NCBI GenBank assembly: GCA_019418605.1
Contig: DYBN01000054.1
Span: 81,350 to 145,349 of the forward strand
DNA from: Sutterella sp.
GTDB taxonomy: Bacteria; Pseudomonadota; Gammaproteobacteria; Burkholderiales; Burkholderiaceae_F
Direction of reading: 5' to 3'
DNA: 64,000 bases
Numbering within the stretch: position 1 is the first letter of the stretch; the number at the start of each line of letters is the position of its first letter. Under the pieces are notes generated by a model that did not search any database, was not told the DNA's origin, and saw nothing but the letters and a program-made list of their open reading frames with translations. This document shows positions 23,034 to 60,600 of this stretch, piece after piece. Both the position numbers and the translations under genes were made by a program.

Positions 23034-23825
23034 TCAACGCTTTAAATCGAGCTCCAGGCGGTCAAAAACCGTCGCCTTGGCAGACATCGGCACCAAGTCC
23101 TCGTGCATGCGCACAAAGGGCTGCATCCACTGCCAGTAGTGATCCAGGAGTTCGGCCTCGAGCGCAAACTCGCCGTTTACCCAGCGCAAAACCCCCTGAT
23201 CTGCCCAGCGGTGCACAACGTCATTGATTTCCTCGCCCCGGGCGGCAAGCAGCGCTGTGATGAGTTTACGCGAGGGCAACACCCTCGAAGCAACCCAGCG
23301 CTGCCGGGATGCCTTGCTTTTTTCCGGTGCGTACTGTCCTTGAGCGGCCAGAAGCGACGTGCAAAAGACTCCGAGACGCTCCTCGATGCTGCCTGCCTGC
23401 GTCACCATCAGTCCCAGGCGCTCGCTCATGGCGTGGCGCAGCGCATAGCTTGCCAGCTCGTGATTGAGCCGCTCGTCGACTTCCGAGAGACTCAAAACAA
23501 TCTCCGGCATGAGCGTGAGCACCTCGCAGTGCGTCGCCGCCCAGTAGCGCCGCGGCAGATTGTCCACGGCGTCGACCGCCCCGGCCGTGGCGCCGAAGCT
23601 TCCCTGCGCCGAGAGCGTCAGCATAAAGAGCCGGCTGCCGCCGGGATTGATGACGCCCTGCGCCAAAAGACCATCATGCACGTAAACCAGACGATTGAAA
23701 AACAAGGAGGAATTGAGCGTCTGGCCGCGTTCAAGCACGGCGCGGCGACCAAGACTCTGCACAACGCGGGAGACCGCTTGGGAGAGCTTGGGGGCAAACC
23801 ACGGCAAAAGAACGTCCGGCGACAT
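23034..23825 (-). CDS. Hypothetical protein, possibly a Crp/Fnr-like regulator
   Basis: Its size and layout resemble the Crp family: an N-terminal barrel-like region and a C-terminal HTH-like 'LPSRKLITALLAARGEEINDVVHRWADQGVL'. I recognise no strong motif. The track ORF extends to 23879. Confidence 0.4.
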   Translation of the reverse strand: MSPDVLLPWFAPKLSQAVSRVVQSLGRRAVLERGQTLNSSLFFNRLVYVHDGLLAQGVINPGGSRLFMLTLSAQGSFGATAGAVDAVDNLPRRYWAATHCEVLTLMPEIVLSLSEVDERLNHELASYALRHAMSERLGLMVTQAGSIEERLGVFCTSLLAAQGQYAPEKSKASRQRWVASRVLPSRKLITALLAARGEEINDVVHRWADQGVLRWVNGEFALEAELLDHYWQWMQPFVRMHEDLVPMSAKATVFDRLELDLKR

Positions 23826-23950
23826 GCTTGAGGCTTGAAAATAAACGATGAAACCGCTGATCCCGGTGATTTTACCCACGTTAAATAACGAAAATTCACC
23901 GGCCGGCGGGGGTCTTCAGCGTTGCCGCAGCGGCACTTTGCTCTCCGAGG

Positions 23951-24085
23951 CTGTGGATAACTCAATGCAATTTCTGTGGATAACTCAAGGCGTTTTGTGA
24001 AGAGCTAAACCCCACGAAAACGCCTCCACAAGTTATTCACCTCCATCCACAGTCTCTCCACAGCGTTTGCAATGTCTTATCCAGA
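23951..24085. promoter_or_regulatory. DnaA-box cluster A: two perfect boxes plus phased degenerate boxes
   Basis: TGTGGATAA occurs at 23952-23960 and 23975-23983, inside a 15-nt direct repeat CTGTGGATAACTCAA, and TGTGAAGAG at 23996. Opposite-orientation 9-mers then follow: GCCTCCACA (24022), TTATTCACC (24033), CCATCCACA (24043), CTCTCCACA (24054) and TTATCCAGA (24077). Confidence 0.6.
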
Positions 24086-24435
24086 AGGTTTTCAACATGC
24101 AAAGTATTTGATTTAAAAGAGAAAAACAACGATATCAACAGAGTTTCCCACATCTACTGTTTACTACATCTACGTAAAAATTTTTTCTTTTTAGGGATAA
24201 ATGGCGAAAGACTGCAAGCCGCTCAAGCGCTTCGCAAAGCGGTCTTCCAAACGCCGCGGAAAGGTTGATAAATAAGAAAAGGGAGGCTGTAGGATCAGGC
24301 TTGCTCCGTCATCTTTTTGACGCTGAGAATCCCCTTGCCGGAAGAACAAGCATTCTGGGTGGGCAGAAACCACCAGCGGAGCACCATCGAAGGTTTTTCA
24401 CAGCCGCCAACGCGCAATCGAATCAAAACAAGGCG

Positions 24436-24468
24436 AAAAAAAAGCTCTGACAAGAAGAGCGTCAGAGC
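24436..24468 (-). terminator. Rho-independent terminator downstream of the FadH-like gene
   Basis: On the minus strand, an 8-bp stem GCTCTGAC/GTCAGAGC is followed by a T8 run. Confidence 0.75.
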
Positions 24469-24497
24469 CGGATCAAAATCAAACCGCATCAAGGCCT

Positions 24498-26537
24498 TCA
24501 GACTTCCAAAGCCTTTTCAATGGCCTCGTGAACGGCTTCGTAAATGGGTAGGTAGCCCGAGTCTCTGGCCGCGGCGCCAATGCTGATGACGTTGACGCCT
24601 GCCGCGGAAAGGCGCATTTCAAGCTCATTGTTGGGAACCGCGCCGCAGCAAACAACGACGTGATCAACGCGCACGGCGTATCGGTCCTCGTGCCTTTCGC
24701 CCCAGCTTGCGCGCAGCGCGAAATTGTCGATTGCCTCAATGTTGGCGTCGCGCAGCGTCTGCGCGCCGCGCATCAAAAGCCACTGCAGCTCCCAGCGATC
24801 AACCGGCTCGCGCAGCACTTGATCGGTCTGACCGCGTTCGGACTCAACCAGATACACCTGCCGCAGGGGCGGCGCAATTTCGGGCACCACGCCCAAAACG
24901 CCGCCGCGGTTAAAGCGCATGTCGCCGATCCCCCAGGCTTTTTTCCACTGTTCGGCCGTCAGCTCCGCCTCTTCGAGCTGCTCGAGAAGATAGCGGCAGA
25001 CCGTGACGGAAACCGCATTGACGCCGATAACCGCCACGCGGTTTCCCACCGGCGCGTTCTCTCCCAAGAGTTCCTCGTAGGTAACGACGTTGGAAGAATC
25101 AATGCCGGGAAAATCCGGTATCTCCGGATCAGATCCGGCGGCGTTGACGACAAGATCGATGTCATTTAACGACAAAATGCTGCTTGTGTCTGCTTTTTCG
25201 TTTAAATGGATGTCAACTCCCGCCAAAATTAGATCTTTTTCCAGTAAGTCAATCCAGCGCTCAATTTTTGTCGTCTGTCTGATTTTTCCTACAAAACGGA
25301 CGGAGCCGCCCAAAAAATCCTGTTTTTCCAGCAAACGCACGAAGTGGCCCCGGCGGGCGGCCGTGAGGGCAAAAAGCATGCCGCTGATGCCGCCGCCCGC
25401 AACGAGGATGCGCCGCTTTTTGGCTGCGGGCACGAAGGCTTGCGGGAAGGCGTTGAAGGAAAAGGGGGAGCTCAGGCTAAAAAGCCGCCGGGTGCGCGAG
25501 AGCGCGTCGATGCGGGCGCACTCGGGGTATTCGATCCAGGGGTGAATGACGCCTTCGCTCGAGCCCAGAGACTTGCGAAGAAAATGGCTGTCGGCGACAA
25601 GCGGGCGGCCAAAGGCAATGAGAAGATTGGCTAGGCCCTCAATCGCCTGATCGGCGTCTTCGAGCGAGCCCAAATCTTCGTTGTAGATCACCGCCAAAGA
25701 GGTGTTTTCCGCCAGAAGCCGCACGGCGGGCAGCCACACGTCCCTGGGGATTGGGTGCAGGTACGTGGGAATGCGGTCTTCGGGCCCTCCGAACTCGGGC
25801 CGCAGGTAGTCGGCTCCGGCAATGCGAAGCATCTGAACAAGCCTTAGCGTCTCCTCCCAGTCGGCGCCGCGCGGGGAGAGTTCCATGAGATTAAAGCGCA
25901 CGCCGATGACAAAGTCGTCGCCCGCCGCCTTGCGGATGCCCCGCACGATGTCAAGCACGAATTTAAAGCGCGCAAGCTGCGTGGCGCCCCAGGCATCGTG
26001 CCTGCGGTTGCTTGCGGGGCTCAAAAACGAGGCCGCAAGCGAGCGGCCCGCCGCGTGCACTTCGACGCCGTCGTAGCCCGCCTCTTTGGCCAGCAGCGCC
26101 GTGTCGATAAATCCCGCGATGATGCGGCGGATAAGAAAGTGCGGTGCCCGCCAGGCCGTTGACTTCGACTTCTGCCTGACGGTGCTTGAAGACCATGCGG
26201 GCCAGGACGAGGCCTGAGCACCCGAGTGCACCAGCTGCAAAATGCTGCGGCAGTCTCGTTTCTTGAGAGCCGCATTGAGGGCCCGGTGGCGCGGGACGTC
26301 GATTGCCTCGTTAAAAACGCGCCACTTGGGGCTTGGCGCGCCGCTTGCATGCACAAGTCCTGCGCAGACCGTCACCATGCTCACGCCGTCGTCGGCGAGT
26401 TGTTCGAAAAAGCGCGAGAGCTCCGCAAGGCTCGGTTCAAATTCGAGTCCCGTAAAGATCGGCGCGGCCGTGATGCGGTTTTTGAGCTGCAGCCGCGCAC
26501 GGGAAAACGGGCACTGCAGGTTGTCAAAGGTCGGCAT
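24498..26537 (-). CDS. 2,4-dienoyl-CoA reductase (FadH)-like OYE/FAD two-domain flavoprotein, divergent
   Basis: It is collinear with E. coli FadH ('APVGNRVAVIG', 'VDHVVVCCGAVPNNEL') and keeps the FAD motif 'ILVAGGGISG'. The Fe-S cysteine motif and the second GxGxxG are degenerate. The start is taken at ATG 26537 (MPTFDNL). Confidence 0.75.
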   Translation of the reverse strand: MPTFDNLQCPFSRARLQLKNRITAAPIFTGLEFEPSLAELSRFFEQLADDGVSMVTVCAGLVHASGAPSPKWRVFNEAIDVPRHRALNAALKKRDCRSILQLVHSGAQASSWPAWSSSTVRQKSKSTAWRAPHFLIRRIIAGFIDTALLAKEAGYDGVEVHAAGRSLAASFLSPASNRRHDAWGATQLARFKFVLDIVRGIRKAAGDDFVIGVRFNLMELSPRGADWEETLRLVQMLRIAGADYLRPEFGGPEDRIPTYLHPIPRDVWLPAVRLLAENTSLAVIYNEDLGSLEDADQAIEGLANLLIAFGRPLVADSHFLRKSLGSSEGVIHPWIEYPECARIDALSRTRRLFSLSSPFSFNAFPQAFVPAAKKRRILVAGGGISGMLFALTAARRGHFVRLLEKQDFLGGSVRFVGKIRQTTKIERWIDLLEKDLILAGVDIHLNEKADTSSILSLNDIDLVVNAAGSDPEIPDFPGIDSSNVVTYEELLGENAPVGNRVAVIGVNAVSVTVCRYLLEQLEEAELTAEQWKKAWGIGDMRFNRGGVLGVVPEIAPPLRQVYLVESERGQTDQVLREPVDRWELQWLLMRGAQTLRDANIEAIDNFALRASWGERHEDRYAVRVDHVVVCCGAVPNNELEMRLSAAGVNVISIGAAARDSGYLPIYEAVHEAIEKALEV

Positions 26538-26776
26538 GAGCGTGGCGCCGTGTCTTTCAACGCAATCCTGCGGCTCTTGCCGCAAAAGAAAAACGCGCAA
26601 GGAATGAGGGCGGCGCGAGTGTGTCCTTGCTTGAAAACAATGGGTGACGATGGCCGATAATGGGCGCAGTTGATTCTATCACCGGGCCTTTTGCCGACAT
26701 CTTGCCGTCATTTTGACGACGCGTTCGCGGCAGTTTCGCGACCTTGTGCTCGTGTTTTGCGCGTTTTTCGCGTGCG

Positions 26777-27742
26777 TTACGGCGTCTCCGGCGGGGCGGC
26801 TTCAAGCTGCGCCAGGTTGTTGATGCCAAAGGGCACGAGCACGCTCGGAATGGTCGTTGCCGTGCTCTCCAGGTGCGAGAGCTGATCGTCAAAGAAGATG
26901 TGCGGCCGCATGATGTTGAGCACCCTGCTCTTTTGCAGTCCGTCCATCAAAAAGAGTTCGGCTGCGCTCATGCCGAGCGCTTTGAGCGTCGTGATGAGGC
27001 GCTCTTCGCTCGGGGCGCCGCGCGCCGTGACGATGGAAACGCGCAGCGCAGGCTTGTAGTACGGATCGTTTTCTCCCCGCTTGGCGTCAAGCGCCTGAAA
27101 CTGCGCGAGCTTGCGAAAGAGTTTGCTCAACGGGCCCGGTGCGTGCGGCGTCTCCTTCATGTCCGTCTCGTGCCGCTCAAAGCCCGCCAGACCGTCTTTT
27201 TGAAACTCGCGCTCGGCCTCGTCGTCGATGATGACGCCGTCAAAGTCAAAGGCAATCCTGAGCTCCCCGTCGTCGTCTTCTTCGCTGCTGAGCTGATTGG
27301 GCCCCACGGGCAGCACAAGCCCTGCCGGGTGATGCTTTTGAATGGCGCGGATCACGTTTTCCTTGTTCGCGCTCAGAAAAAGCGAGGCGTCGAAGGCTTC
27401 GATGTAGGGAAAGGTTGACTGGCCCGACGTGAAGGCGCCGGCCTTGATCGGCAGCTCGTAGTAGCGGCACGAGGCAAAAAAGCGCTGCCCCGTTTCCGGC
27501 GAGTTGCGGCTTAAAACCACGACGCGAAAGGGCTCCTCGGCCGGAAAGAGGCGGTTGATTCTCAAGAGCCTTGTCACAAAGGGAAAGGCCACGCCCGGCT
27601 GCAGGGGCTTGTCGCGGTTGTCGATCTGATACTTGCGGTAGGCGGCGATGCCCATGGACTCAAAGATTTGATGCTCATCCTCAAGATCAAAGAGCGCGCG
27701 GGAGCTGACGGCGACGACGAGTTGATTGTCCGTGGTCTTCAT
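26777..27742 (-). CDS. 5'-nucleotidase-family protein (cytosolic 5'-nucleotidase-like)
   Basis: The N-terminal 'LVVAVSSRALFDLEDEHQIF...YRKYQ' and 'IAFDFDGVI' resemble the bacterial 5'-nucleotidase family. Confidence 0.65.
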   Translation of the reverse strand: MKTTDNQLVVAVSSRALFDLEDEHQIFESMGIAAYRKYQIDNRDKPLQPGVAFPFVTRLLRINRLFPAEEPFRVVVLSRNSPETGQRFFASCRYYELPIKAGAFTSGQSTFPYIEAFDASLFLSANKENVIRAIQKHHPAGLVLPVGPNQLSSEEDDDGELRIAFDFDGVIIDDEAEREFQKDGLAGFERHETDMKETPHAPGPLSKLFRKLAQFQALDAKRGENDPYYKPALRVSIVTARGAPSEERLITTLKALGMSAAELFLMDGLQKSRVLNIMRPHIFFDDQLSHLESTATTIPSVLVPFGINNLAQLEAAPPETP

Positions 27743-27770
27743 GGTCGTTGATTTTTGGGCCCTGAAACAG

Positions 27771-27800
27771 CAAAAAAGCCCGAAACGAGCGGGCCTTTTT
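27771..27800 (-). terminator. Rho-independent terminator after gyrB
   Basis: On the minus strand, a GCCCG...CGGGC stem is followed by TTTTTT. It lies between the gyrB stop and the next gene's start. Confidence 0.6.
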
Positions 27801-27813
27801 GCATTGAAAATCG

Positions 27814-30381
<2,568 letters not shown>

Positions 30382-30593
30382 TCAAATTTTCGTGTAAAGG
30401 TCAAGATTGCCGCCGCCGGTTTTGCTGCGCTTGAAAACCTTGCGCCAATGCAGCGAAAAAATCGCGTTGCATTGGCGCTCTTTGCGGGATCCGGAAAATT
30501 GGGCGGCCAAAGGGGACTTTGGACTTTGCCCGAAGGCCCCCTGCCGTTTTGCTCGTGCACAGACAAAAATCGTGCGGCACGAGGCGGTGCACG

Positions 30594-31709
30594 TTAAATG
30601 CGCATCGGCATCAGCACGTAGCGGAAGTTTTCGCTCTCGGGCATCGTCAGCAGCGTGGCGCCCTGGTTATTGGCAAAGGCAAAGCGCACTTCGCTGTTTT
30701 TGAGGTTTCCGAGAACGTCAAGCAGGTAGACGACGTTAAAGCCCAGATCGAGTTCGTCGCCCTCGTAGTTGATGGCGATTTCCTCAACGGCCTCCTCCAT
30801 GTCGGCGTTGGCGCTCTGAATCTGCAGGCAGCCGGGCTTGACGAGCCAGCGCAGGCCCTTGAACTTCTCGTTGGCAAGCACGGCCGCGCGTCTTAGCGCG
30901 CCGATGAGCTGCTCGCGGTTGATGAGGAAGATTTTGTCATTGTGCTGCGGAATGACGCGCTTGTAGTCGGGGTACTTGCCGTCGACGAGCTTGGTGAGAA
31001 ATTCGATGCTACCAAAGGTAAAGCGCGCCTGATTGGCCGAGAGCTCCACCCGCACGGGAGCGTCGCTCTCCGGGAGCAGCTTCATGAGCTGCTGGACGGT
31101 CTTGCGCGGCAAGATGGCCTCGATCGGGCGCTCTTCGTCGGTGGTGATCTCAAGCGCGGCGTCGCAGCAGGCCAGACGGTGCCCGTCGGTGGCAACCGTG
31201 CGCACAAGCCCGTTTTCAATTGAGAGCAGCATGCCGTTGAGGTAGTAGCGGATGTCCTGCTGGGCCATGGCAAAGTGCACCATCTGCAGCAGGTGCTTGA
31301 GCACGTTTGCGGGCAGCGTGAAGTCGTGGTCGATCGCCGCCACGGGCAGCACCGGGTACTCCTCGGCGGACATCTGCGAGAGTGAAAAGCGCGAGTTGTC
31401 GGCGCGAAGCACCACCTTCTTGCCGTCAACGAGCATGGAGACCTCGGTCGAGGCGCTCGGCAGCGCCGTCAAGAGGGCGATGAGCTTGCCTGCGGGCACG
31501 GTGGCTTTCACCTGCTCGGCGCCGACGCCGATCTGGGCGCTCGTGCGAATCTGGATTTCAAGGTCGGTTGTGGTGAAGGTGACTTCGCTACCGTTTGCGT
31601 CGACCAGAATGTTGGAGAGAATGGGAAGCGTCTGACGGCCTTCCACGATTCCCCCCACAATCTGCAGAGGTTTCAGAAGCGCCTCGCGCGTACATTGGAT
31701 GAACTGCAT
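30594..31709 (-). CDS. dnaN: DNA polymerase III beta sliding clamp
   Basis: It is 371 aa, starts 'MQFIQCTREALLKPLQIVGGIVE' and ends '...MPMRI'. It lies between dnaA and gyrB. Confidence 0.97.
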   Translation of the reverse strand: MQFIQCTREALLKPLQIVGGIVEGRQTLPILSNILVDANGSEVTFTTTDLEIQIRTSAQIGVGAEQVKATVPAGKLIALLTALPSASTEVSMLVDGKKVVLRADNSRFSLSQMSAEEYPVLPVAAIDHDFTLPANVLKHLLQMVHFAMAQQDIRYYLNGMLLSIENGLVRTVATDGHRLACCDAALEITTDEERPIEAILPRKTVQQLMKLLPESDAPVRVELSANQARFTFGSIEFLTKLVDGKYPDYKRVIPQHNDKIFLINREQLIGALRRAAVLANEKFKGLRWLVKPGCLQIQSANADMEEAVEEIAINYEGDELDLGFNVVYLLDVLGNLKNSEVRFAFANNQGATLLTMPESENFRYVLMPMRI

Positions 31710-31831
31710 GAAATCAACCTTTTCTCGTAATCAAAACTGAAGCCGAAGCAAAACTTCGGCCCGTCTGTGGATTTTAATGAAAAACTACCCGGCTGTCGCC
31801 TGGTGCGCGGGGCGAAAATCGTTGATTTTCC

Positions 31832-33187
31832 TCAGCTTTTGATCTTCTGCTCGAGGATGTGAAGATCGTACTTGAGCTCTTCGTCGGTGTTGCGCTCCGC
31901 GGCGATTTTTTTGCACGCATAGATGATGGTGGCGTGGTCTCGCCCGCCAAAGAGGTCGCCGAGTTCGGGCAGGCTCTTTTTGGTGAGCTCGCGGGCAAGG
32001 TAGATGGCGATTTGGCGCGCGCGCACAAGCTTGGCCTTGCGCGACTTTGAGTTGATGTCGGCCACTTTAAAGCCGTAGTGCTGCGCCACGGTCTGCTGGA
32101 TGGCCTCGATCGTGACCGGCGTGCTGCTTGCCTTGAAGATGTCGCGCAGCGCAAGCTTTACGGTGTCGATCGTGACGTCGACCTGATGAAAGCGCGTGTA
32201 GGCAAGAACCTGCTGCACGGCGCCTTCGAGTTCTCGCACGTTGCTCTTGAGTTTTTTGGCGATGATCTCGGCCACCTCGCGGGGCATGTCAAGCCCCGAG
32301 CGCTCGGCCTTTAAAAGCAGAATCTGCACGCGCATGTCAAACTCGGGCGGCTCGATCGTCACGATGAGCCCCTGCGTGAGGCGGCTCAAAAGCCGCTCCT
32401 GAAAGTCCTTGAGGTTGCGCGGATAGGTGTCGCTCGTGAGCACGATCTGCTTGCCGTGCGGCACCATGCTCTCAAAGGTGAGAAAGAAGTTGGTCTGCGT
32501 GCCCGTACGGGGACCGAAGCTTTGAATGTCGTCGATCAAAAGCAGATCAAGGCCGCGGTAGCGCTCCTCAAAGCGGCGCATCTCATCGGCAAAGCGGTCC
32601 CGGTCAACGCTGTTGAGCCGCATGACCTCCATGAATTCCTGAACGTACTGCTGCGCGGAGATGCACAGCACCTTTGCCTTGGGATTGTTTTGCAAAAAAC
32701 GGTTGCCGATGGCGTGCATCAGGTGCGTTTTTCCAAGGCCTACGCCGCCGTAGATGAAAAGCGGGTTGTAGATCGACTTGGGGCTTGAGGCGACCTGCAG
32801 GGCCGAGGCAAAGGCCATCTGGTTGGCCTGGCCTTCGACCAGATTTTCAAACGTGAGGTAGGGCAGCAGCCCCGTTTTGGCAATGTCGGCCTGCGACGGG
32901 GCTTCGGGCTCGGCTGGAGCCGCGGCGGAGGCGGTCTCGGCTCCCTCTTCCCTTACCTGCCAGAGCAGTTCGACTTCTTTTGCAGCCAGACGGTTGACGG
33001 TCTGCGAGATCGTCTTTCCGTAGGCCTTGACGACTTGGCGCATCTTTGCGTTTGAAGGGGCATAAATCGTCACGACCCCTGCGTCGAGCTCGACATCGGC
33101 CGTCAGATCTGAAAACCAGTTCTGATAGACCAAGGCGGGCGTTGACTCCCGCAGGGCTTCAAGGCATTGCGTCCAGAAATCGTTCAT
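31832..33187 (-). CDS. dnaA: Chromosomal replication initiator DnaA
   Basis: It has the AAA+ Walker A 'GGVGLGKTHLMHA', 'LLIDDIQ', and the domain IV DNA-binding 'GGRDHATIIYACKKI'. The start is taken at ATG 33187 (MNDFWTQCLE). Confidence 0.97.
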   Translation of the reverse strand: MNDFWTQCLEALRESTPALVYQNWFSDLTADVELDAGVVTIYAPSNAKMRQVVKAYGKTISQTVNRLAAKEVELLWQVREEGAETASAAAPAEPEAPSQADIAKTGLLPYLTFENLVEGQANQMAFASALQVASSPKSIYNPLFIYGGVGLGKTHLMHAIGNRFLQNNPKAKVLCISAQQYVQEFMEVMRLNSVDRDRFADEMRRFEERYRGLDLLLIDDIQSFGPRTGTQTNFFLTFESMVPHGKQIVLTSDTYPRNLKDFQERLLSRLTQGLIVTIEPPEFDMRVQILLLKAERSGLDMPREVAEIIAKKLKSNVRELEGAVQQVLAYTRFHQVDVTIDTVKLALRDIFKASSTPVTIEAIQQTVAQHYGFKVADINSKSRKAKLVRARQIAIYLARELTKKSLPELGDLFGGRDHATIIYACKKIAAERNTDEELKYDLHILEQKIKS

Positions 33188-33899
33188 CTGCTTCAATGAA
33201 AAGGGAAAAAAACGCCCCGCGGCGCCGGCGCGCATTGCCGCAGGCCGGCCTTGCTCCTTGGGAGAAAACCTTGAGACGACAAAAGCCGCGCCGCAGGCGG
33301 GGAATGTTTGTACGAGTGTTCGGGGAAAATAGGCGAGGATTTTACCTGCGGCGCCTGAAGTTATCTATGTGGCGGCCCGCCTTCGCCCCTTGCTTGGGAT
33401 TCGCTGATTTTGCGCATTCGCACGACCGATTGTGGTGGGCTGAGGTCCCCGACGCTAGATGCTGTGGAAAACGCCAGGGGCGATCGCGGCGATAAAAATT
33501 TTTCTCCGGCTCGGGGGAGCGTGAAATTTTTGCGCAAAGATTGACAGAAACACCAAAAATAGGGTTTAATATCAGGCTTTTCACGGACACGGATCACTGC
33601 GGCCGGCGTTTTCACCTGGCCGCACGGCGGATGCGCGCGTTTTTTTGCGGCAAAGATGCTTTTGCCGACGGCTCGTTTGGCCGGGCGCACATCGTCTGCG
33701 CGCATGGGCGTGTCTTCGCGAAAAGAGCGTCTTCTGCGGCCGCCAAAAAGGCGTTGACAGCAACAGGCATTTTGTGCGGCCCGAACTTTGTTTTAGATGA
33801 AGCGCCGGCTGCGGCGCGCCAAACGAAGGAAAAGACATCAATTTTCCCGGCGCTGCTGCCTCTTCATCGTCTTCCTTTGACTGAAGGTAAGGAAATATC

Positions 33900-37108: not shown

Positions 37109-37185
37109 AAGGATTGAGAAGTTTGATGGAAAGCAACTCCGTCAATCTTACCCCGGCTGTTGATTTTGCTGAAAATAATTAAAAA

Positions 37186-37202
37186 AGTTTGATTTATCAA
37201 TC
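37186..37202. promoter_or_regulatory. Dyad TTGAT-TT-ATCAA upstream of mnmE (motif shared with the parA upstream region)
   Basis: AAAAAAGTTTGATTTATCAATCATAAAG lies about 20 nt before the mnmE ATG. It is near-identical in form to 43571-43600. Confidence 0.3.
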
Positions 37203-37222
37203 ATAAAGTTTTGGACATCACA

Positions 37223-38796: not shown

Positions 38797-40368
38797 TTAT
38801 GCTTTGCTGACCTTTGGCCGCTCCGGCTTTCGTTTTGGTTGGGGCGGTTCTTTTTTTTCAGAGGCCGTCTTTGTCTTGTTCTTGCTTCCTTTGGGACGAC
38901 CGCGCCTGCCGGGCTTGACAAGCTCTCCCACCGGAGTGGGCTTTGATTTTTCAGACAATCCCAGTTTTTCCAAGATGGCTTTGATGCTCGGCGTGGTGTG
39001 CACCCAGGCATCGTCGTCTGATTGAGCCGGTAGGGGACCGTCGACGCGGCGCCATGCGGTAGACAAGTCGTCCATCAAATCCGACCACGAGTCATTGTCG
39101 AGCAGGCCGGCCGCCTCTGCCTTGTGAAGCATTCGACAGGTGAGCGTGGCAGCAATGCAGTTGATGAACTCAGAACCGATGACGGAAAAGTCATCCTGTA
39201 CGCCGCTCTCTTCCGGAGGCGCGTCGTTTTTGAAGCGCTGAAATATTCTCTCGATCTGCCGGCGGTCCTTGCAGCATCGGTAAACCACGTCGGGATCCAA
39301 GTCCTCATTGGACTCAAGGACGATCATGCCGAAGGAATTCTTCTTTGCGCGCTCCGCGACTGGAGGCTCTTTGAGCGCCTCCTCGGTGCCGGTCTTGTAA
39401 ACGTAGAGAAATTGCCCGTTGTCTGCCCTCTCCTTTTTGTACAAGACGTCTATGTTGTCTTTGAGCACTCCTTGAAACTCGAGCGTGTTGAATTTTGCAA
39501 TGCGTGAGTCTTCGAGCTTGATTGGAGTGATGAACTGCAGCTGCGGCTGCGGCTGCGAGGCCAGCTCCTGAGCGAGCTGCTCGCGCGGAATCTCTTCGTC
39601 AAAAATAAGGATGCCTTTGTCGATGTCGTTGTCTTTCATGAAGGAGCGGCAGGACGCGGCGGCGTCAATGCTGTTGTCCGGGAAGACCTCTGCGCAGACG
39701 GGTTCGCGCCGCACCAGATCGTATGCGTAGATGATGGAGATGCCACGGCTGTCTTCGTCGTGCGCGTTGTAGGAAAAGGTTGAAAGGTCGTTCACGTCGA
39801 CCGTGTTCTGTTTGCGCACGTTGCCAATGGCAATGCGGGGGTGAGGTTTCATCGCACGGATTCGCCGCATATGAAATTGGCGGCGTTTGGCTCCGTCCTT
39901 GCCAAGCTGCTGAAACAAGGACGACACGGCATTGGCCGACAGAGCCAGGTCCGGGTAGTAGCGGCTGATGAAAGTGCGTCGATACTCCACGTCGATGCGG
40001 TGCATCGTGATCTTTGGTTTTAAGACGCGCACAGAGGCGATGGCCATGATTCTCTGCGCATCCTCCACTGAATAGACAGCGGACAGATCGTCGAGCAAAT
40101 CGGCCGAACAGTCGCGGATGAAGGCGGCTGCTCCATAGGAGAGCATGTCAGGCTCCGCGTTGACCGCTTTGGCAACAACAGGCACGAATTGGTGATCGAC
40201 AATGTGTCCGATGATCGGGCCGTTGATTGGCCGAGGATTGCCGGCGGGACCGTACTTGACGCCGATGCGCTCGCGCACGGCGTAGCGTTTCGTTTCCCTG
40301 GCGCCGGACAAAACAACGACGGTGTTCCGAGGCCGCGGAACGCTTCGAATATCTGCGGGAATGCTCAT
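38797..40368 (-). CDS. IS4/IS1634-like DDE transposase homologue with a basic AT-hook-like C-terminal tail
   Basis: The C-terminal catalytic signature 'YRCCKDRRQIERIFQRFKN' resembles the IS4-superfamily R-x3-E-x6-K block. The tail 'KPGRRGRPKGSKNKTK' is AT-hook-like (GRP core). The family assignment comes from pattern memory only. Confidence 0.5.
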   Translation of the reverse strand: MSIPADIRSVPRPRNTVVVLSGARETKRYAVRERIGVKYGPAGNPRPINGPIIGHIVDHQFVPVVAKAVNAEPDMLSYGAAAFIRDCSADLLDDLSAVYSVEDAQRIMAIASVRVLKPKITMHRIDVEYRRTFISRYYPDLALSANAVSSLFQQLGKDGAKRRQFHMRRIRAMKPHPRIAIGNVRKQNTVDVNDLSTFSYNAHDEDSRGISIIYAYDLVRREPVCAEVFPDNSIDAAASCRSFMKDNDIDKGILIFDEEIPREQLAQELASQPQPQLQFITPIKLEDSRIAKFNTLEFQGVLKDNIDVLYKKERADNGQFLYVYKTGTEEALKEPPVAERAKKNSFGMIVLESNEDLDPDVVYRCCKDRRQIERIFQRFKNDAPPEESGVQDDFSVIGSEFINCIAATLTCRMLHKAEAAGLLDNDSWSDLMDDLSTAWRRVDGPLPAQSDDDAWVHTTPSIKAILEKLGLSEKSKPTPVGELVKPGRRGRPKGSKNKTKTASEKKEPPQPKRKPERPKVSKA

Positions 40369-53230: not shown

Positions 53231-53616
53231 ACGCCGGACGTTGTTTCACTGACTGCAACCGCAAGCGCGGCGGCAATGTCATCGGCCGCCGCGTTTTTAA
53301 TCAAAACGCGTTTGGAGCGGCTTGTCTGTCCCGCGGTGATGTCGATCGAAGACTTCGGCGCTCCCAGACGCTTTGCCAAAAACGCCCTGAGAGCGGCGTT
53401 GGCTTTTCCGTCAACGGCCGGGGCGGCAAGCGCAATCTTGATGCGCTCGCCGTAGAGGCCGCAGAGCGCATCGCGCCTGGCGCCGGGCTGCGCATGCACG
53501 GCAAGCACGGCTCCCGCCTCAGTTTGGCTTAACCAAACGGGCAGGGCCTGCGTGCGAGAATTGCCCTCTGCGCCGTTTTGACCAACCTTTCGAGTTTTTC
53601 CCATGAAGCCCGTCAA
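53227..53616 (-). CDS. DUF167 (YggU/UPF0235) family protein
   Basis: '[12 protein letters not shown]...[26 protein letters not shown]' matches the YggU signature. The 5' end is uncertain because it overlaps the hemE start on the other strand. Confidence 0.75.
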
Positions 53617-54670
53617 CGATACGTTTCTGCGCGCATTAAAGCGCGAACATACCGACTATACCCCGCTGTGGCTGATGCGCCAGGCGGGCCGCTATCTGCC
53701 CGAGTACAACGCCACGCGCAGCCGTCTGGGCAGCTTCATGGCGCTTGCGCAGGACCCGCAGGCGGCCTGCGAGGTGACGCTGCAGCCCGTGGAGCGCTTC
53801 GGGCTTGACGCGGCGATTCTTTTCTCCGACATCCTCACGGTGCCCGACGCCATGGGGCTGGGGCTTTCCTTTGTCACCGGCAAGGGGCCGGTGTTTGCGC
53901 ATCCCGTGCAAAGCGAGGAAGCCGTCGACGCCCTCTTTGTGCCCGATCCGGAAGAAAAGCTGGGCTACGTGATCGAAGCCGTGCGCACCATCCGCCGCGA
54001 GCTCAACAACCGCGTGCCCTTGATCGGCTTTTCGGGCTCGCCCTTTACGCTTGCCTGCTACATGGTCGAGGGCGGCGGCTCGAGGGACTTTGCGACGATC
54101 AAGAAGATGATGTACGCGCGCCCCGATCTGCTCTCGCGCATTCTCGATGTCAATGCGCGCGCCGTGACCGCGTATTTGAACGCGCAGATTCGCGCGGGCG
54201 CGCAGGCCGTGCAGATTTTTGACACCTGGGGCGGCGCCTTGGCCGACGGGTGCTTTGAGGAGTTTTCTCTCAAGTACATGGCCCGCGTCATCGAGGGGCT
54301 CATCCGGGAAAACGACGGCGAGCGCGTGCCCGTGATTGTCTTTACCAAGGGCGGCGGCATGTGGCTTGAAAAGATCGCGCAGTGCGGCTGCGACTGCGTG
54401 GGCGTCGATTGGACGGTGAATCTTGCGCAGGCGCGCGTCAGGACGGGAGACCGCGTCAGCCTGCAGGGAAACCTCGATCCAATGGTGCTTTTTGCGGGCG
54501 AAGAAGCCATCCGGCGCGAGGCGCGCCGCGTCATCGACTCCTTTGGCACGGTGGGCGCCGGCGGCCACGTCTTTAACCTCGGCCACGGCATCAGCCAGTA
54601 CACCGACCCCGAGGCGGTGGCGATCCTGGTCGACGAGGTGCACGCCTACTCGGCTGCCATGCACAAGTAG
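53603..54670 (+). CDS. hemE: Uroporphyrinogen decarboxylase
   Basis: It has '[15 protein letters not shown]' and 'FDTWGG'. Confidence 0.96.
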
Positions 54671-54766
54671 GGCTTTTGTTTCCGGAAGGGGCGGGCAGAG
54701 GGAATCAGCTTTTTCATGGCGGCCTCCCGGGCTGCGCACCGCTCTTTGCGGGGACAAACGCAGAAG

Positions 54767-54854
54767 TTGTGCACAGCCTTTTCACAAGGTTTAAACAGGT
54801 TTTCCAGAGCCTCTTCACAGGTTCTGCACAAGCCTTTCCACAGACTTTTCCACA
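54767..54854 (+). repeat. Array B: eight DnaA-box-like 9-mers in 11-bp register
   Basis: TTGTGCACA (54767), CTTTTCACA (54778), GTTTAAACA (54789), TTTTCCAGA (54800), CTCTTCACA (54811), TTCTGCACA (54822), CTTTCCACA (54834) and TTTTCCACA (54846). Start-to-start spacing is 11,11,11,11,11,12,12. Confidence 0.6.
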
Positions 54855-54932
54855 GGCGGTCTTAAGGCGCCGCTGCACGACGGCCCCCGCGGTTTGCTTT
54901 GCCGCGGCCTGAAATAGAGAAGGAAAATAGAC

Positions 54933-54971
54933 AAGGAGCCTGCTCTTTTTGAAATGAAGAGCAGGCTCCTT
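54933..54971. terminator. Strong bidirectional hairpin between hemE and the cytochrome c gene
   Basis: A 15-bp perfect stem, AAGGAGCCTGCTCTT with AAGAGCAGGCTCCTT, closes a 9-nt loop. It lies between convergent genes. Confidence 0.75.
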
Positions 54972-55089
54972 GCGCAGTTGACGCAGTGTTTCATCTCGCA
55001 AAACAGACGAAAACTGGCCGCAGGAAAGAGAAAGAAGGAGGCTTCTGAAAGCCGCGGCGGGCTTTGCCGCCCTTAAAGGAAGCCGCGCT

Positions 55090-55437
55090 TTAGGGGACCT
55101 TGATGTCGCGGAACTCATGGCACTGATCGCACACGAGCCGCGGGGGCTTGTGGCCCTGATGGCAGTCGCCGCAGGGGACTTCGCCCAGGTGGGAGTCGTG
55201 CGGATTCATGTCGGCGTCGGCCGTCTGTTCGGCGAGCTTGGCGTACGTGCCGCCGTGGCAGGCAAGGCACTGCTTGTCGACGCCCTGGGCCTTGGGCGGC
55301 ATCGGGTTGTGGCAGGACTCGCACTTGAGGCCGCGGGCGACGTGACGGTCGGCAAGAAGCGCATCGGCAGCCGTCGAGACGCCGGCCACGGCGCCTAAGA
55401 CGGCGGCAAGCACGAGCTTGAGGCAAATGTTTTTCAT
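55090..55437 (-). CDS. Periplasmic tetrahaem cytochrome c (Fcc3 N-terminal-domain-like)
   Basis: It has a Sec signal peptide and four CXXCH motifs (CESCH, CLACH, CGDCH, CDQCH). 'NPHDSHLGEVPCGDCHQGH...CDQCHEF' parallels the haem domain of Shewanella flavocytochrome c3. Confidence 0.88.
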   Translation of the reverse strand: MKNICLKLVLAAVLGAVAGVSTAADALLADRHVARGLKCESCHNPMPPKAQGVDKQCLACHGGTYAKLAEQTADADMNPHDSHLGEVPCGDCHQGHKPPRLVCDQCHEFRDIKVP

Positions 55438-55565
55438 GGTTGTTTCTTGCTAAGAAGTAGGGCACCGGCCGTCTCTCGAAAGTGACGGCTCCCTTTCGGG
55501 GAACGCTCCCGTGAGGGCGGCGCGAGCAACATCGCAGACGGCCCGGTGCGGTGAAAACGAAGGCT

Positions 55566-57155
55566 TTAGCTCCAGGGCTTTTCAGCGGCGACGTTGCGGC
55601 CGGCGATGCGCCCGAAGACGCAGGCCTCCGAGTTGTTCGTGGCGCCCTGATAGATGTGGCCCCACATGGAACCGAGTTCGCCTGCGCTGTAAAGGCGCGG
55701 GATGGGCTTTTTGAGCGCCGTGAGCACCTGGCCGCGTTCGTTGCGGCGCGGGCCGCCCTGGGTGTTCAAAAGCGTCGGGTAGAGCTTGGCCGCGTAGTAC
55801 GGTCCCTGCTCGTCGAAGGGCTCGCTGATGATGGGAGCCTCGCGCCCTTCAAAGGCGATCTTGCCCTTCTTCTTCAGGGGACGGCCGAACTCCTTGTCCG
55901 CGCCCGACTTGATGTTTTCGTTCCAGGTGCGCAGCGTCGCCTCGAGGTTTTCAGCCGGCACGCCGATCTTTTCGGCCAGCGCCTTGATGCTCGGGGCCGA
56001 GACGATCACGCCCTTTTCGATTTCGGCGCTGTTGTCGCGGCTCCACTTGTAGTTCTCGCGGTTGATGGCCCAGCCCGAAGTGGCCCCGCCCACGATGGGA
56101 CCGCGCTTGCGGGCCTTCTCGTCGAAGATGACGTAGCAGGGGATGCGCGGGTAGCGGTGTTTGATGGCGTCAAGGTAGTTCACCGCATAGATGCAGGTGT
56201 GGTTGTCCATCTTCTCGTTGCAAAAGCGCTTGCCGTCCTGATCGACGTAGAAGTAGCTCGCGGCGAGCATGTTGATCTGAAGCGACGTTTTGAGCCCCGG
56301 CACTTCGAGCCCCAGGGGGCACGAGAGCGCATTCATGTGCCAGAGGCCTGCGCCTGCGGCCTGCGCCATGCGGATGCCGTCGCCCGTGTTGCCCGGGCAC
56401 CCGAGGCGATGAAACATCTGGCCCATGGTGTGGTTTTGCAAGAGCTCGTCGTCAAACTCAAAGCCGCCCGTGCAGAGCACGACGCCGCGGCGGGCCTTGA
56501 CGGCCTGCTTTTTGCCGTCGATTTCGACCCAGACGCCAAGGACTTCGTCGTTTTCGCGGATGAGCTCAAGGGCGCGGGCGTTGTAGACCACGGGGATCTT
56601 GCGGGTGGTTTCGACCGCGTAGCGGTAGTTCTTAAAGAGCATGTCGCCGCCGCGCAGCTTGAGTCCCTTCGGGGTGCGGAAGCGCCACTTTTCGATGGCG
56701 TCGGACTCGGGGATGTTGGCAAAGCCCGCGTAGCCGTAGATGTAGATCTTCTGGTCGGGCGCCAGAGACATGAGGAAGTCCTTGGACTTCATGGCCTCCT
56801 TGACGAAGGTGCGCAGCTGGGTGCGGTCGATTTCGCTGTTGGCAAAGGAGTAGGTCTTCTCGAGGTAGGTGTAGGCGCGCTCTTCGTTGTTGGGGATCAT
56901 CATGCCGCCCGAGGAGACGGCGGTGTTGCCGCCGCCTTCGGAGAGCTTTTCAAAGATCATGACCTTGGCGCCGGCGTCGTGGGCGGTGATGGCGGCGCTT
57001 GCGCCCGCGCCGCCGTAGCCCAGGATGGCGACGTCGGTTTCAATGTCCCACTTGGCGGGCAGGTCGGCCTTTTTGGCGTGAGCGGCGCCCACGACGGGAA
57101 GAGCGGCGGCAAGGGCCGCGCCTTTCAAGAAACTGCGCTTGGAGATGTTGGTCAT
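55566..57155 (-). CDS. Tat-exported FAD-dependent reductase (fumarate reductase/flavocytochrome c flavoprotein family)
   Basis: It has the Tat-like signal 'MTNISKRSFLKGAALAAALPVVGAAHA' and the FAD motif 'GYGGAGASAAITAHDAGAKVMIFEK'. The start is taken at ATG 57155; the upstream part of the track ORF is Arg/Pro-rich junk. Confidence 0.85.
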   Translation of the reverse strand: MTNISKRSFLKGAALAAALPVVGAAHAKKADLPAKWDIETDVAILGYGGAGASAAITAHDAGAKVMIFEKLSEGGGNTAVSSGGMMIPNNEERAYTYLEKTYSFANSEIDRTQLRTFVKEAMKSKDFLMSLAPDQKIYIYGYAGFANIPESDAIEKWRFRTPKGLKLRGGDMLFKNYRYAVETTRKIPVVYNARALELIRENDEVLGVWVEIDGKKQAVKARRGVVLCTGGFEFDDELLQNHTMGQMFHRLGCPGNTGDGIRMAQAAGAGLWHMNALSCPLGLEVPGLKTSLQINMLAASYFYVDQDGKRFCNEKMDNHTCIYAVNYLDAIKHRYPRIPCYVIFDEKARKRGPIVGGATSGWAINRENYKWSRDNSAEIEKGVIVSAPSIKALAEKIGVPAENLEATLRTWNENIKSGADKEFGRPLKKKGKIAFEGREAPIISEPFDEQGPYYAAKLYPTLLNTQGGPRRNERGQVLTALKKPIPRLYSAGELGSMWGHIYQGATNNSEACVFGRIAGRNVAAEKPWS

Positions 57156-57682
57156 CTTCGTGACTCCTTTTGGTGTTGGGGTCCGGCGCCGAAGCGGCAT
57201 TCGGTTCGTTTCTGGCAAAGGCTTTGGAGCGAAAAAGAGAAGGCGGGATGCCCTCTTGTCCCCTGCGGGTGCCCGGAAAACGAAGCCGCCGCGCTGCGGC
57301 CGGGTTTTTCTTGGCGGCAATCATCCCGCCTGCGGCTACGTAAGTAGCTTGCGGGCGCACAAGAAAACCCGAAAAAAACTGCCGCGGGTCAGCTGCGGCG
57401 CACCCGGCGCAGGGCCGGGGTCCGGCGCCCTGAGCCGCCTGATGTGCGGCCTGGTGTGCGGGGAGCTTTTTGCCGCGCACCGGTACAATCCGCCTGATTT
57501 CCTTAAAAAAAGAGCCCCGCGCCGCGGCGCCAGGCACCGCAGCGGTCCTCAAGCCTCTTTTTTTTCTCATTTCCTCACTGCTTTTCCCGGATTTTTTGCG
57601 ACAAGGACGCACTGCCTGCCGCGTTGCTTTCAAGCACGAAAAGAGGCGCTGCGGGCGTCGTTCTTGACAAAAGGAGCTTTCC

Positions 57683-60600
57683 ATGCCCGCTTTGGAGAAT
57701 GCGCAGCCGGCCGAGGCCGGACGGCAGACCGAATATGGAACCACCTGGTGGGGGCGCCGATGGCTTGACGCCCTGGCGGGCATCGACTACGAAAACCGCA
57801 TTCCGCGCGGCAAGGCCTATGCCGATCAGGGGCGCGTTTTAAGCTTTAAGGCCGATCCCAAAAAGAGGCTTGTGAAGGCGCGCGTTGAAGGCAACTACGA
57901 TCCGTTTTATCTGGTGCGGCTCAAGTTCGAGGCGATCGCGCCGCGAAAGTTAAAAAAGCTCATCGACGAGATGGCCGCCTCGCCCCTGATCGTCTCGCGG
58001 CTGGCCGCGCGGGAGCTCTCGCCTGAGATCGCGGAAATTTGCGACCGGCTCGACATCCGCATCTTCCCGCAGTCCTGGAAGGATATCGACATGCAGTGCT
58101 CGTGCCCGGACGAGGCCGTGCCCTGCAAGCACATCGCCGCCGTGATCTACAAGATGTGCGAGGAAATCGACGCCAATCCCTTCATCCTCTTTCAGCTGCA
58201 CGGAATTGACCTCATCGGCCAGATGCAAAAGCGCGGCGTCGAAATCGACCGCGCCGTCGACGTGGAGCTGCCGCGCTGGAAGGACCTGGTGGCTGAAACC
58301 GGAGTCCCCGCGCCCGAAGACGACGAGCAGTGGCTTGCCGCCTTGTCGGCCGTGACCTTCGAGAAGCCCGCCGCGCAGGGCGAGGCGCTCGCCAAGCTTT
58401 TTGCCGACAAGCCCGCGGGCTACACCCGCGGCAGCCTGCGCGAGCTCCTTGTGCGCGTGCTCGAGCGCGCCTCAAGGCTTGCCGCGAGGCAAAAAAGCCT
58501 CAAGGCCGAGCGCACGCTGCCCGAGTATGACGAGAGCAAGCCTCTGCTGTCAGTCAACGGCTGGGGACAGACGCTGCCGGATGCGTCTCTCGTTTGGCGC
58601 GAAAGAAGCGCCGAAGGCGAGCTGCAGGTGCTGCAGGCAGGCAAGCCCGGCTTTAGTGCCTTGCGGTTTGCGCGCGGCTTTGATTCCCGCCGCAGGCCCT
58701 TGTTTGAGATGTTTTCGGGCTTTTTGACCGCCCGCGACTTTGCCGAAGCCCCCAAGGCCCTTGAGGCGCTTTTTGACGCCTGGCTTGTTGCCTCGCGTCT
58801 GGTTGAAAGCGGCGCGGTGCTCGCACAGGCCTATGAGCCGGTCGAAGACTTCATCGCCGTGCGCTGGATGCCGGCGGTGCTCGACGCAGGCGTGCGCTCC
58901 ATCACCGAGCGCGTGGGCGAGGCGTTTGCGCACGTTGACAGGGACTTTTTGCGCATCTCCGGCACCCGAAGCCCGGTTCACCCGCTGCTTTTGGGCGAGC
59001 TCGTGCTCGGCGTCTTCATCGAGAGCTACGTGCACGAAGCGTTTGCCGAGGAGATGGCGCTTGCGGGCGAAGAGCCCGAAGCCCAGGACGAGCGCAGCAT
59101 CATCTTTGCGGGCGCAACGGTCGATCGAAGCGAGGATGCGGAAATCGAGGCGCTTGCCATGCGCGTGGAGAGCTGGCTCTCGCCCCTGGTGATGGAGGCG
59201 GCGCTGCCGGTCAAGCCCATCGTGGTGGTCTACGACTGCGCGGCCGCGGGCGGCGCCGACGACATCAAGGACGCCCCCGTTTCGCTGGAGCTGCGCTTTG
59301 CGCTCAAGGACAAGGAGAAGGCCCCCGAGAGCGTGGCGCTTTTCGACATCCTCGAAGAGGACGACTACAAGGACGTGCGCTTTGACTGCCTGCGCTCGGT
59401 CTCGCAGCTTTCCTCGCACTGCCCGGCGCTCACCGAACTTTTGCGAAACAAAACGAGCCGGCGGCAGGTCACGCTCGAGCAGCTCACGGACCTTCTTTTT
59501 GAGTCGCTGCCCGCGCTGCGGCTGCTCGGGGTGGACATCGTGCTGCCGCGCAGCTTGAAGAGCCTGCTGCAGCCGCAGGCGCGCATGCAGATTGACTCCG
59601 AAGATGAATGGAAGCTGGGCAGCGGCCTCGGGGGACTGGCCTCGCTTTTGAACTTCCGCTGGCAGCTTGCCGTGGGCGATACGCCCGTCTCCGAAGAGGA
59701 GTTCGACAGACTCTGCGAGCACGCAGGCAAGGTCGTGCGCTTTCGCGACGGCTTCATGTACGTGAGCGCCGACGAAGTCAAGCGCATCCGGCACCGCCTG
59801 CAGCGGCGCTCCTTTACGAAGTCCGAGCTGCTGCGCGAGGCGCTCGGCTCGAAAAAGGGCGGCAAAGGGGTGGTTCTGGGCAAAAAGCTGCGGGCTGCGC
59901 TCGATCAGATTTTTGCCGACAGAGACATCGCCATGCCCGCGCACGTCGAGGCCGTGCTGCGCCCCTATCAGGAAAGGGGCTATCGCTGGATGATGCGAAA
60001 CTTCTACTCCGGCGTGGGCTCGATCATTGCCGACGACATGGGGCTTGGCAAGACGCTGCAGGTGATCACGGTTCTTGAGCGCCTGCGCGAAGACGGTGCG
60101 CTCGACGAAAAGCAGGCGCTTGTGGTGGTGCCGGCCTCGCTTTTAATCAACTGGCAGAGGGAAGTGGGCAGGTTTGCCCCCAAGCTGCGGCTTGGCATCT
60201 TCTACGGCCCCAACAGGGAGCTCGACGAGAGCGTACACATCATCCTCACCACCTACGGGACGCTGCGCTCCTCAATCAAGGTCCTCGGGGCCCGCAGCTG
60301 GCGCCTGCTTGTGATCGATGAGGCGCAGGCGGTCAAAAACTACCGCACGAGCGCCTTTAGAGCCGTGACAGGCGTTGCGGCCGACGGCGTGATCGCCATG
60401 TCGGGCACGCCCGTGGAAAACCGCCTCTCCGAGTACTGGTCGATCATGGAAGTGTGCAACAAAGGGCTTTTCGGCACGATCGGCGCATTTCGCGACGAGT
60501 TCGTCGTGCCGATTGAAATCAACCGCGATCCGGCCGCGGCCGAGGCGTTTCGCCGCATCAGTTCGCCCTTCCTGCTGCGGCGCATGAAGACCGACAAGTC

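Follow-up and report, generated by a model that had tools for sequence, protein, structure and literature searches.

The 64-kb stretch of DNA analysed here (the window), from a member of the Sutterellaceae (Betaproteobacteria), raises the question of where this chromosome starts to replicate, as a first-pass annotation had noticed a cluster of DnaA boxes 9 kb from dnaA, in the gap between a gene for an OYE/FadH-type oxidoreductase (OYE) and a gene for a 263-residue protein (hyp263), and had suggested an alternative origin or a DnaA-regulatory locus. We find that this gap (positions 23826–24497) is very probably the chromosomal oriC of the organism, with a core at approximately 23951–24200, and that the qualifier 'alternative' can be abandoned: because the rpmH–dnaA and dnaA–dnaN gaps contain neither a box cluster nor a comparable AT-rich tract, the OYE–hyp263 gap appears from its sequence to be the primary and, in the 64 kb seen, probably the only origin. 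The direct support comes from box enrichment, a conserved anatomy, low duplex stability and a strand-composition switch at the gap, while the binding of DnaA and integration host factor (IHF), the site of unwinding and the firing of the origin would follow by analogy with Escherichia coli and Bacillus subtilis.

The gap is 672 bp long by the start codon used by gene callers on identical contigs (the earlier figure of 618 bp holds for the longest open reading frame), and contains two, three and 13 boxes with zero, up to one and up to two mismatches, where 0.0, 0.1 and 1.4 are expected. None of 3000 dinucleotide shuffles of the gap itself reached these counts. The highest weighted box density of the 64 kb is found in the 300-bp segments starting at 23851–23951, and the window as a whole has 12 boxes with up to one mismatch against 3.9 expected (none of 100 shuffles reached 12). 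The rpmH–dnaA gap is GC-rich with a single one-mismatch box, the dnaA–dnaN gap has a single two-mismatch box, and in no other gap of the window are boxes and an AT-rich tract combined. No sigma-70-like promoter was detected in a scan of the OYE–hyp263 gap, and an Rfam search of the whole window returned tRNA only, with no RNA element in the gap.

Most elements named in the first-pass annotation could be located in the sequence, including the two perfect boxes (TGTGGATAA) within a 15-nt repeat (23951–23965 and 23974–23988), the related box at 23996–24004, the box at 24144, the repeated ACATCTAC (24150 and 24167) and an A5T6 run (24176–24186). The opposed run had been described as five boxes; those at 24033, 24043, 24054 and 24077 stand, the one at 24022 (GCCTCCACA), with three mismatches and no conservation among relatives, is doubtful, and two conserved boxes at 24089 and 24132 had been overlooked, giving an array of seven members (boxes are numbered B1–B10 from the unwinding side in Table 1). 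The adjoining tract, thought to be the most AT-rich in the window, ranks first at the 100–150 bp scale (GC 0.27) but only fourth to sixth at 40–60 bp, where tracts at 37.17, 43.57 and 40.37 kb are more AT-rich. The tract had been placed at ~24095–24200; the seven-box array extends into it, and the unwinding element proper covers ~24153–24200.

This arrangement is retained in related species. An alignment of the hyp263 family led to 12 genomic loci (20-kb pieces), all from Sutterellaceae (Duodenibacillus and Sutterella metagenome-assembled genomes) and with 47–66% protein identity, and the order dnaA–dnaN–gyrB–5'-nucleotidase–OYE–gap–hyp263–BON is kept in every related locus reaching far enough (12 species). 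A box cluster is found in the same OYE–hyp263 gap in all 12, with up to 10–12 boxes with no more than one mismatch in the distant species. A MAFFT alignment of 13 species identified a core of ~300 bp which is collinear and essentially indel-free within otherwise unalignable gaps of 370–1536 bp, and in which the boxes stand at equal distances from the hyp263 start in the window and the relatives: seven in one orientation, spaced by 12, 43, 12, 23, 11 and 10 bp, and after them two or three in the opposed one. With the unwinding element drawn at the left end, the core begins with an AT-rich AAAAATAAAAATATTTAT-like tract, a TAG/TAA-rich segment, the tandem boxes B1–B2 and a 34-bp AAATCAA spacer, and continues with B3–B4, B5–B6–B7, a variable spacer of ~30 bp and the opposed boxes ending in AGTTATCCACA. 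Column identity is 0.82 for the boxes compared with 0.65 for other core columns (pure spacers ~0.5; p = 1.5e-9), and 0.77–0.78 for the AT-rich and TAG-rich segments. The likeness to E. coli oriC that had been proposed (opposed arrays, ~11-bp phasing and a flanking unwinding element) is therefore borne out and conserved across 13 species, although the parts had been assigned differently: there are opposed arrays, but it is the seven-box array that adjoins the unwinding element, with the two perfect boxes at the far end in the opposed orientation. We note that the distant relatives L011–L014 have extra boxes with zero or one mismatch beyond the unwinding element, 390–780 bp upstream of hyp263 (e.g. 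pairs 42–43 bp apart), so that some members of the family may have a bilateral form of the origin; in the window, the corresponding region shows weak matches only.

The raw cumulative GC skew is lowest at 24–25 kb, but this is confounded with gene orientation because C exceeds G at third codon positions of the coding strand throughout the window (the third-position GC skew, GC3, is ~-0.08 for leading-strand and ~-0.20 for lagging-strand genes), and we therefore fitted a two-term logistic model instead, with a coding term, a replication term and a scanned change-point. It should be noted that raw GC-skew plots in the source genome mostly follow gene orientation. The best change-point for GC3 and the equivalent TA skew (TA3) was 24,161; a switch at the rpmH–dnaA site was 5.2 log units worse (7.5 with the insertion sequence (IS) and foreign insertion excluded), and one upstream of priA was indistinguishable from no switch and ~35 log units worse. 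From the window alone the switch can be placed anywhere from ~23 to 34 kb, 24 kb being modestly preferred, and the related genomes settle it at the gap rather than at rpmH–dnaA. The GC3 skew of the dnaA-to-OYE block lies between -0.19 and -0.25 in all ten informative related loci and so equals that of lagging-strand genes on the far side of the gap (-0.15 to -0.32); for co-oriented genes just across the gap it is -0.11 to +0.22. The log-likelihood difference between a switch at the gap and one at rpmH–dnaA, summed over these ten relatives, amounts to +122 with GC3 and +80 with 4-fold sites. A switch elsewhere, for example at dnaA–rpmH, had been named beforehand as the result that would tell against an origin here; both the window, at 24,161, and the 20-kb loci, with their summed difference of 122, place it at the OYE–hyp263 gap.

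Duplex opening was computed with an approximate single-bubble Benham model of the stress-induced duplex destabilisation (SIDD) type. The 24153–24200 region is within the lowest-stability 100 bp of the window, and in a 5-kb domain 24160–24200 (and 24101–24128) opens from sigma = -0.05. When a 20-kb domain with both candidate sites is modelled, opening from sigma = -0.05 is likewise dominated by the OYE–hyp263 gap, although at sigma = -0.045 a tract upstream of mnmE (37160–37219) opens instead; the rpmH–dnaA region needs a sigma of -0.055 or stronger, and then opens at the rpmH promoter alone.

We also compared the gap with the five oriC criteria of Weigel (2025; bioRxiv 10.1101/2025.08.05.668638, section 2.2.12), of which the second is indispensable. 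The gap has one unwinding element predicted to be destabilised under stress at 24160–24200 (criterion 1), a reverse TGTGNAWAA box with no more than one mismatch some two helical turns away (criterion 2), and seven same-orientation boxes (24033–24152) followed by three opposed ones (criterion 4). The criterion 2 box is B1, which reads TGTGGGAAA with the unwinding element on the left (one mismatch to TGTGNAWAA and two to TTATCCACA) and has the AT-rich core 24 bp away; its position is conserved in all 13 species. The formal (NAN)>=3 rule finds DnaA trios (criterion 5, optional) in 11 of the 13 species, and 73% of shuffles pass it as well. The tally reaches four of five, with the mandatory one included, only if criterion 5 is counted by this formal rule; the exception is criterion 3, to which we return below. 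The trio rule is non-discriminating in AT-rich DNA, and what is informative is that TAG/TAA are in excess on one strand and that this bias is conserved: 12 of 13 species have 4–5 per 30 nt on the trio-like strand compared with 1–3 on the complement. The segment concerned (consensus TAGA.a.AGTagt.AgTAGa, identity 0.78) is a candidate for single-strand DnaA binding on the minus strand. The gap also agrees with the rule for basal unwinding systems (a box with <=2 mismatches, an optional tandem box with <=4, a spacer <=16 bp and >=3 NAN trios on the 5'-tail strand; PMC8287927), as B1 and B2 have two mismatches each and a 3-bp gap, and are followed after a 1-bp spacer by the trios TAG, CAG and AAA. 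This agreement adds little weight because the rule has low specificity in AT-rich DNA.

By analogy with these systems, initiation at the gap might proceed as follows. DnaA would bind the perfect far-end boxes at 23952 and 23975 and fill the seven-box array, whose fixed 10–12 bp phasing would suit a DnaA oligomer; bending of the DNA at the IHF-like site would bring the array toward the AT-rich element; the oligomer would then extend from B2–B1 onto the TAG/TAA-rich minus strand and open the AT-rich tract; and helicase loading at the opened tract would allow two forks to leave. The individual elements are listed in Table 1. The IHF consensus (WATCAANNNNTTR) is strictly matched at the same position in five of 13 species but in only 0.2% of shuffled segments, and the TTTAAAATCAA block (AAATCAA element) in the same spacer is conserved; a role for IHF here is suggested by the IHF site of E. 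coli oriC. The B7–B6–B5 triplet is phased at 10–11 bp with identical spacing in all relatives, and six distant relatives have a perfect or one-mismatch TTATCCACA box in the column of the degenerate B8. B10 is nearly invariant among species (AGTTATCCACA, identity 0.97), and B10 and B9, which are 135 and 158 bp upstream of the hyp263 start, constitute the far, opposed end, equivalent to R4 of the E. coli origin. On the other side, a strong intrinsic terminator halts incoming transcription from the OYE gene ~240 bp ahead of the unwinding element. The filler between them includes a 24-codon open reading frame on the plus strand (MAKDCKPLKRFAKRSSKRRGKVDK, 24202–24276) pointing away from the unwinding element, which we considered as a source of outward transcription and dropped, as it has no counterpart in relatives (where gaps can be as short as 392–427 bp).

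Table 1. Elements of the OYE–hyp263 gap and the genes on either side of it (identity is column identity in the 13-species alignment)
Feature	Position	Strand	Remarks
AT-rich core of candidate unwinding element, AAAATTTTTTCTTTTTAGGGATAA	24177–24200		Identity 0.77; within least stable 100 bp of window
Trio-like segment, read 5'-ACGTAGATGTAGTAAACAGTAGA-3', directly 5' of B1	24153–24176	-	Includes ACATCTAC repeat
Box B1, TTTCCCACA, nearest unwinding element (R1-type)	24144–24152	+	Identity 0.86; offset same in all relatives
Box B2, ATATCAACA, tandem partner of B1, 3-bp gap	24132–24140	+	Identity 0.84; 12-bp start-to-start spacing conserved
IHF-like site, AATCAAATACTTT, 12/13 match to WATCAANNNNTTR	24101–24113	-	In 34-bp B2–B3 spacer
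Box B3, TTTTCAACA	24089–24097	+	Identity 0.89
Box B4, TTATCCAGA, 1 mismatch	24077–24085	+	Identity 0.68
Box triplet B7, B6, B5: TTATTCACC (24033), CCATCCACA (24043), CTCTCCACA (24054)	24033–24062	+	Identities 0.83–0.87
Box B8, TGTGAAGAG (plus-strand reading), degenerate, opposed, 3 mismatches	23996–24004	-	Identity 0.67
Perfect opposed boxes B10 (23952–23960) and B9 (23975–23983) in duplicated 15-mer CTGTGGATAACTCAA	23951–23988	-	
Non-conserved filler between terminator and unwinding element	24201–24442		
Intrinsic terminator of OYE-type gene, 10-bp stem then T8	24443–24469	-	
hyp263, 263 aa, predicted Crp/Fnr-fold regulator, divergent	23034–23825	-	Transcribed away from gap
OYE/FadH-type oxidoreductase	24498–26537	-	
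PF06189 5'-nucleotidase	26777–27742	-	
gyrB	27814–30378	-	
dnaN	30594–31709	-	
dnaA	31832–33235	-	

Conserved clusters of DnaA boxes also occur away from origins, as in E. coli, which has datA, DARS1 and DARS2, and the gap might be a titrating or recycling locus of this kind, or a second, back-up origin comparable to oriC1/oriC2 of Pseudomonas, with the firing origin at rpmH–dnaA, upstream of priA or outside the window. The dual origin-like sequences known in Pseudomonas and Halomonadaceae (bioRxiv 10.1101/2025.08.05.668638; PMC13438810) lend this some plausibility, as do the departure from the flanking-gene orientation rule at the gap and the presence of a second conserved box module at 61.5 kb. 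We nevertheless consider it unlikely: datA and DARS loci lie away from the start of replication and have no unwinding element, trio-like segment or phased arrays, whereas the gap has all of these, conserved together, and coincides with the strand switch in the window and ten relatives. The competing sites are disfavoured by 5–7 log units (rpmH–dnaA; 122 summed in relatives) and ~35 log units (priA), and the union of boxes and AT-rich tract is peculiar to this gap within the window. The regulatory role allowed for in the first-pass annotation is a better fit for the module upstream of priA (61.5–61.75 kb). Alternatively, the boxes could be mainly a DnaA-controlled promoter region of hyp263 with no role in initiation, given that hyp263 always adjoins the cluster, that the perfect boxes are 135 and 158 bp ahead of its start codon, and that DnaA is a known transcription factor at boxed promoters (e.g. 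dnaA and gidA in P. aeruginosa; PMC13438810). This we regard as very unlikely, since an operator needs neither ten boxes over 200 bp with fixed helical phasing, nor an IHF-like site, nor a conserved AT-/TAG-rich module 330–375 bp upstream, and it would leave the strand switch unexplained; the scan of the gap for sigma-70-like promoters was also negative. An origin here could at the same time regulate hyp263, as is seen with mioC and gidA at E. coli oriC. The suggestion that cluster and skew minimum are a coincidence, due to the AT-rich composition of intergenic DNA and to a reversal of gene direction, draws on the fact that raw GC skew is largely orientation-driven and that genes switch strand at the gap, but it is effectively refuted by the alignment, the cross-species skew and the shuffles: a replication-type term remains after coding bias is modelled and peaks at the gap, local shuffles never reach the box counts, and box positions are conserved where the flanking protein is only 47–66% identical. 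None of these three explanations accounts for both the conserved unwinding module and the switch in polarity.

Several observations nonetheless weigh against placing the origin in the gap. Within the window, the margin of 24.16 over 33.66 kb is just ~5 log units, and the two sites cannot be told apart on 4-fold G/C positions alone; the cross-species skew test compares different gene sets, so that the codon usage of dnaA, dnaN and gyrB could add signal. KOPS-type (FtsK orienting polar sequence) motifs (GGGNAGGG and GGNAGGG) number 7 on the plus and 12 on the minus strand left of the gap and 21 and 9 to the right in the loci, a weak trend in the expected direction which is too sparse to help, and the trio rule does not discriminate at the gap. 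The OYE gene beside the unwinding element is transcribed toward it in all relatives, contrary to criterion 3 (the gene on the unwinding-element side reads away), which Weigel reports to be true of all confirmed origins (bioRxiv 10.1101/2025.08.05.668638). Finally, an origin at the gap means that the dnaA–dnaN–gyrB–5'-nucleotidase–OYE block meets the rightward fork head-on in all species examined, and this head-on arrangement of dnaA, dnaN and gyrB is atypical.

The surrounding genes identify the window as an origin-proximal region. Those of the dnaA-to-OYE block (24498–33235) are all transcribed toward the gap and have a lagging-strand-type third-position skew in the window and ten relatives. 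On the plus strand to the right of dnaA are rpmH–rnpA–yidD–yidC–mnmE, mnmG–rsmG–parA–parB and the atp operon, all co-oriented rightward; an IS1634-family transposase gene (38797–40368, minus strand) lies between mnmE and mnmG beside the very AT-rich tract at ~40.37 kb. To the left, hyp263 is followed by the gene for a BON/DolP-like lipoprotein and then by lipA, menA, lipB and dacA on the plus strand. The hyp263 protein has no Pfam or NCBIfam match and belongs to a narrow family (30 clusters) which adjoins the box cluster in all 12 relatives and appears to be restricted to the Sutterellaceae. An AlphaFold2 model (predicted local distance difference test score, pLDDT, 70.5) and Foldseek matches to Clr, CprK, CRP and FNR (E ~1e-11, template modelling (TM) score 0.6–0.73) predict a Crp/Fnr fold with a β-barrel, a long helix and a winged helix-turn-helix. 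The one-mismatch box in the 660-bp rpmH–dnaA gap (TGTGGAAAA, 33463–33471) is 228 bp upstream of dnaA, and relatives also have only one box in this gap, consistent with autoregulation of dnaA or with what is left of an ancestral origin.

The second box module of the window lies upstream of priA (module 61486–61750; priA 61812–63824) and consists of two tandem pairs, TTTTCCGCA-AAG-TTATCCACA, 189 bp apart, and then five TGTGAAG-type boxes at ~10–11 bp spacing. The double tandem pair recurs in the hemE–priA gap of four relatives (L016–L019; PriA identity 79–54%), with a distance of 187–189 bp in L016–L018 and a looser ~177 bp in L019, the most distant. We rejected this cluster as an origin, as there is no strand-bias switch there and no AT-rich tract in the window copy, and see it instead as a candidate datA/DARS-like site or DnaA-controlled priA promoter. 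In relatives hemE is directly upstream of priA, but in the window ~6.7 kb (54671–61485) is inserted between hemE (53603–54670) and the module. The insertion includes genes for a cytochrome c3 (55090–55437, minus strand), a flavocytochrome with a twin-arginine translocation (TAT) signal (55566–57320, minus strand) and a 1225-aa SNF2/SWIM/DUF3670 helicase (57683–61360, plus strand), and a few DnaA-like boxes persist just past hemE at ~54.75–54.85 kb.

The core of the OYE–hyp263 gap has the orientation expected if it were placed between rpmH and dnaA, with the unwinding element toward rpmH, and the simplest history would therefore be a 9-kb relocation of the origin relative to the dnaA–OYE block without inversion. 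A wider picture, which we offer tentatively as one possibility, is that the Sutterellaceae origin moved or the dnaA-to-OYE block was transposed, that a head-on dnaA–dnaN–gyrB and a gene reading into the unwinding side have since been stable, and that the hemE–priA module is a datA/DARS-type regulator or couples DnaA to PriA expression. We found no paper describing a Sutterellaceae origin in a search of the literature on Sutterella or Burkholderiales origins, in which Cupriavidus was the only precedent to come up. Origins separated from dnaA are already known (E. coli) or predicted (Cupriavidus), so this kind of arrangement is not new, but if our reading is correct the gap is a natural exception to the flanking-gene rule reported for all confirmed origins, and the family-wide orientation of dnaA–dnaN–gyrB toward the origin and of OYE into the unwinding side provides a natural test of how important flanking transcription and head-on conflict are. 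It would also provide an origin position and base-level anatomy for a gut-associated family (Sutterella, Duodenibacillus), usable for growth rates from metagenome coverage (peak-to-trough ratio), assembly orientation and genetics.

Among known systems, the gap resembles the E. coli datA and DARS loci in being a conserved box cluster outside the dnaA promoter, and some of these have an IHF site, but those loci lack both an unwinding element and a trio-like segment and are not sites of a strand switch. Closer in phylogeny is chromosome 1 of Cupriavidus metallidurans CH34, also of the Burkholderiales, where a skew transition and perfect-box cluster have been predicted ~90 kb from dnaA by Ori-Finder alone (PMC2864759). 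Both have their skew transition and perfect boxes away from dnaA–dnaN–gyrB and few boxes upstream of dnaA, though the distance in the Sutterellaceae is 9 kb. With the basal unwinding system of B. subtilis and others (PMC8287927, PMC6669920) the gap shares tandem boxes with a 3-bp gap, TAG/TAA triplets (3'-GAT-5' consensus) on the 5'-tail strand and an AT-rich tract; it differs in that the triplets are not in one continuous frame (2–5 consecutive NAN trios), there is no GC-rich spacer, and the match to the published rule is no better than chance.

The closest parallel is E. coli oriC, which has a one-sided layout of unwinding element, R1, IHF site, left array and right array ending in R4 (PMC13643167). 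The gap has the same edge unwinding element with an adjacent R1-type box of the TGTGNAWAA kind, an IHF-like site following the first boxes, an array in one orientation phased at 10–12 bp and high-affinity opposed boxes at the far end, and is likewise apart from dnaA. Triplets and the TGTGNAWAA box follow the unwinding element in the orientation of DUE–R1 in E. coli, which also agrees with the 5'-tail trios of the basal unwinding system (PMC8287927). Unlike E. coli, no GATC/SeqA system is evident at the Sutterellaceae gap, the boxes on the unwinding side are a low-consensus tandem pair with perfect boxes only at the far end, and the flanks are an OYE-type oxidoreductase gene and a Crp/Fnr-like gene rather than gidA and mioC. 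Furthermore, OYE on the unwinding side reads toward the origin where gidA reads away, and dnaA is head-on in the window but co-directional in E. coli. The probable origin is of an ordinary E. coli type with a one-sided layout, and what is unusual is its context, 9 kb from dnaA.

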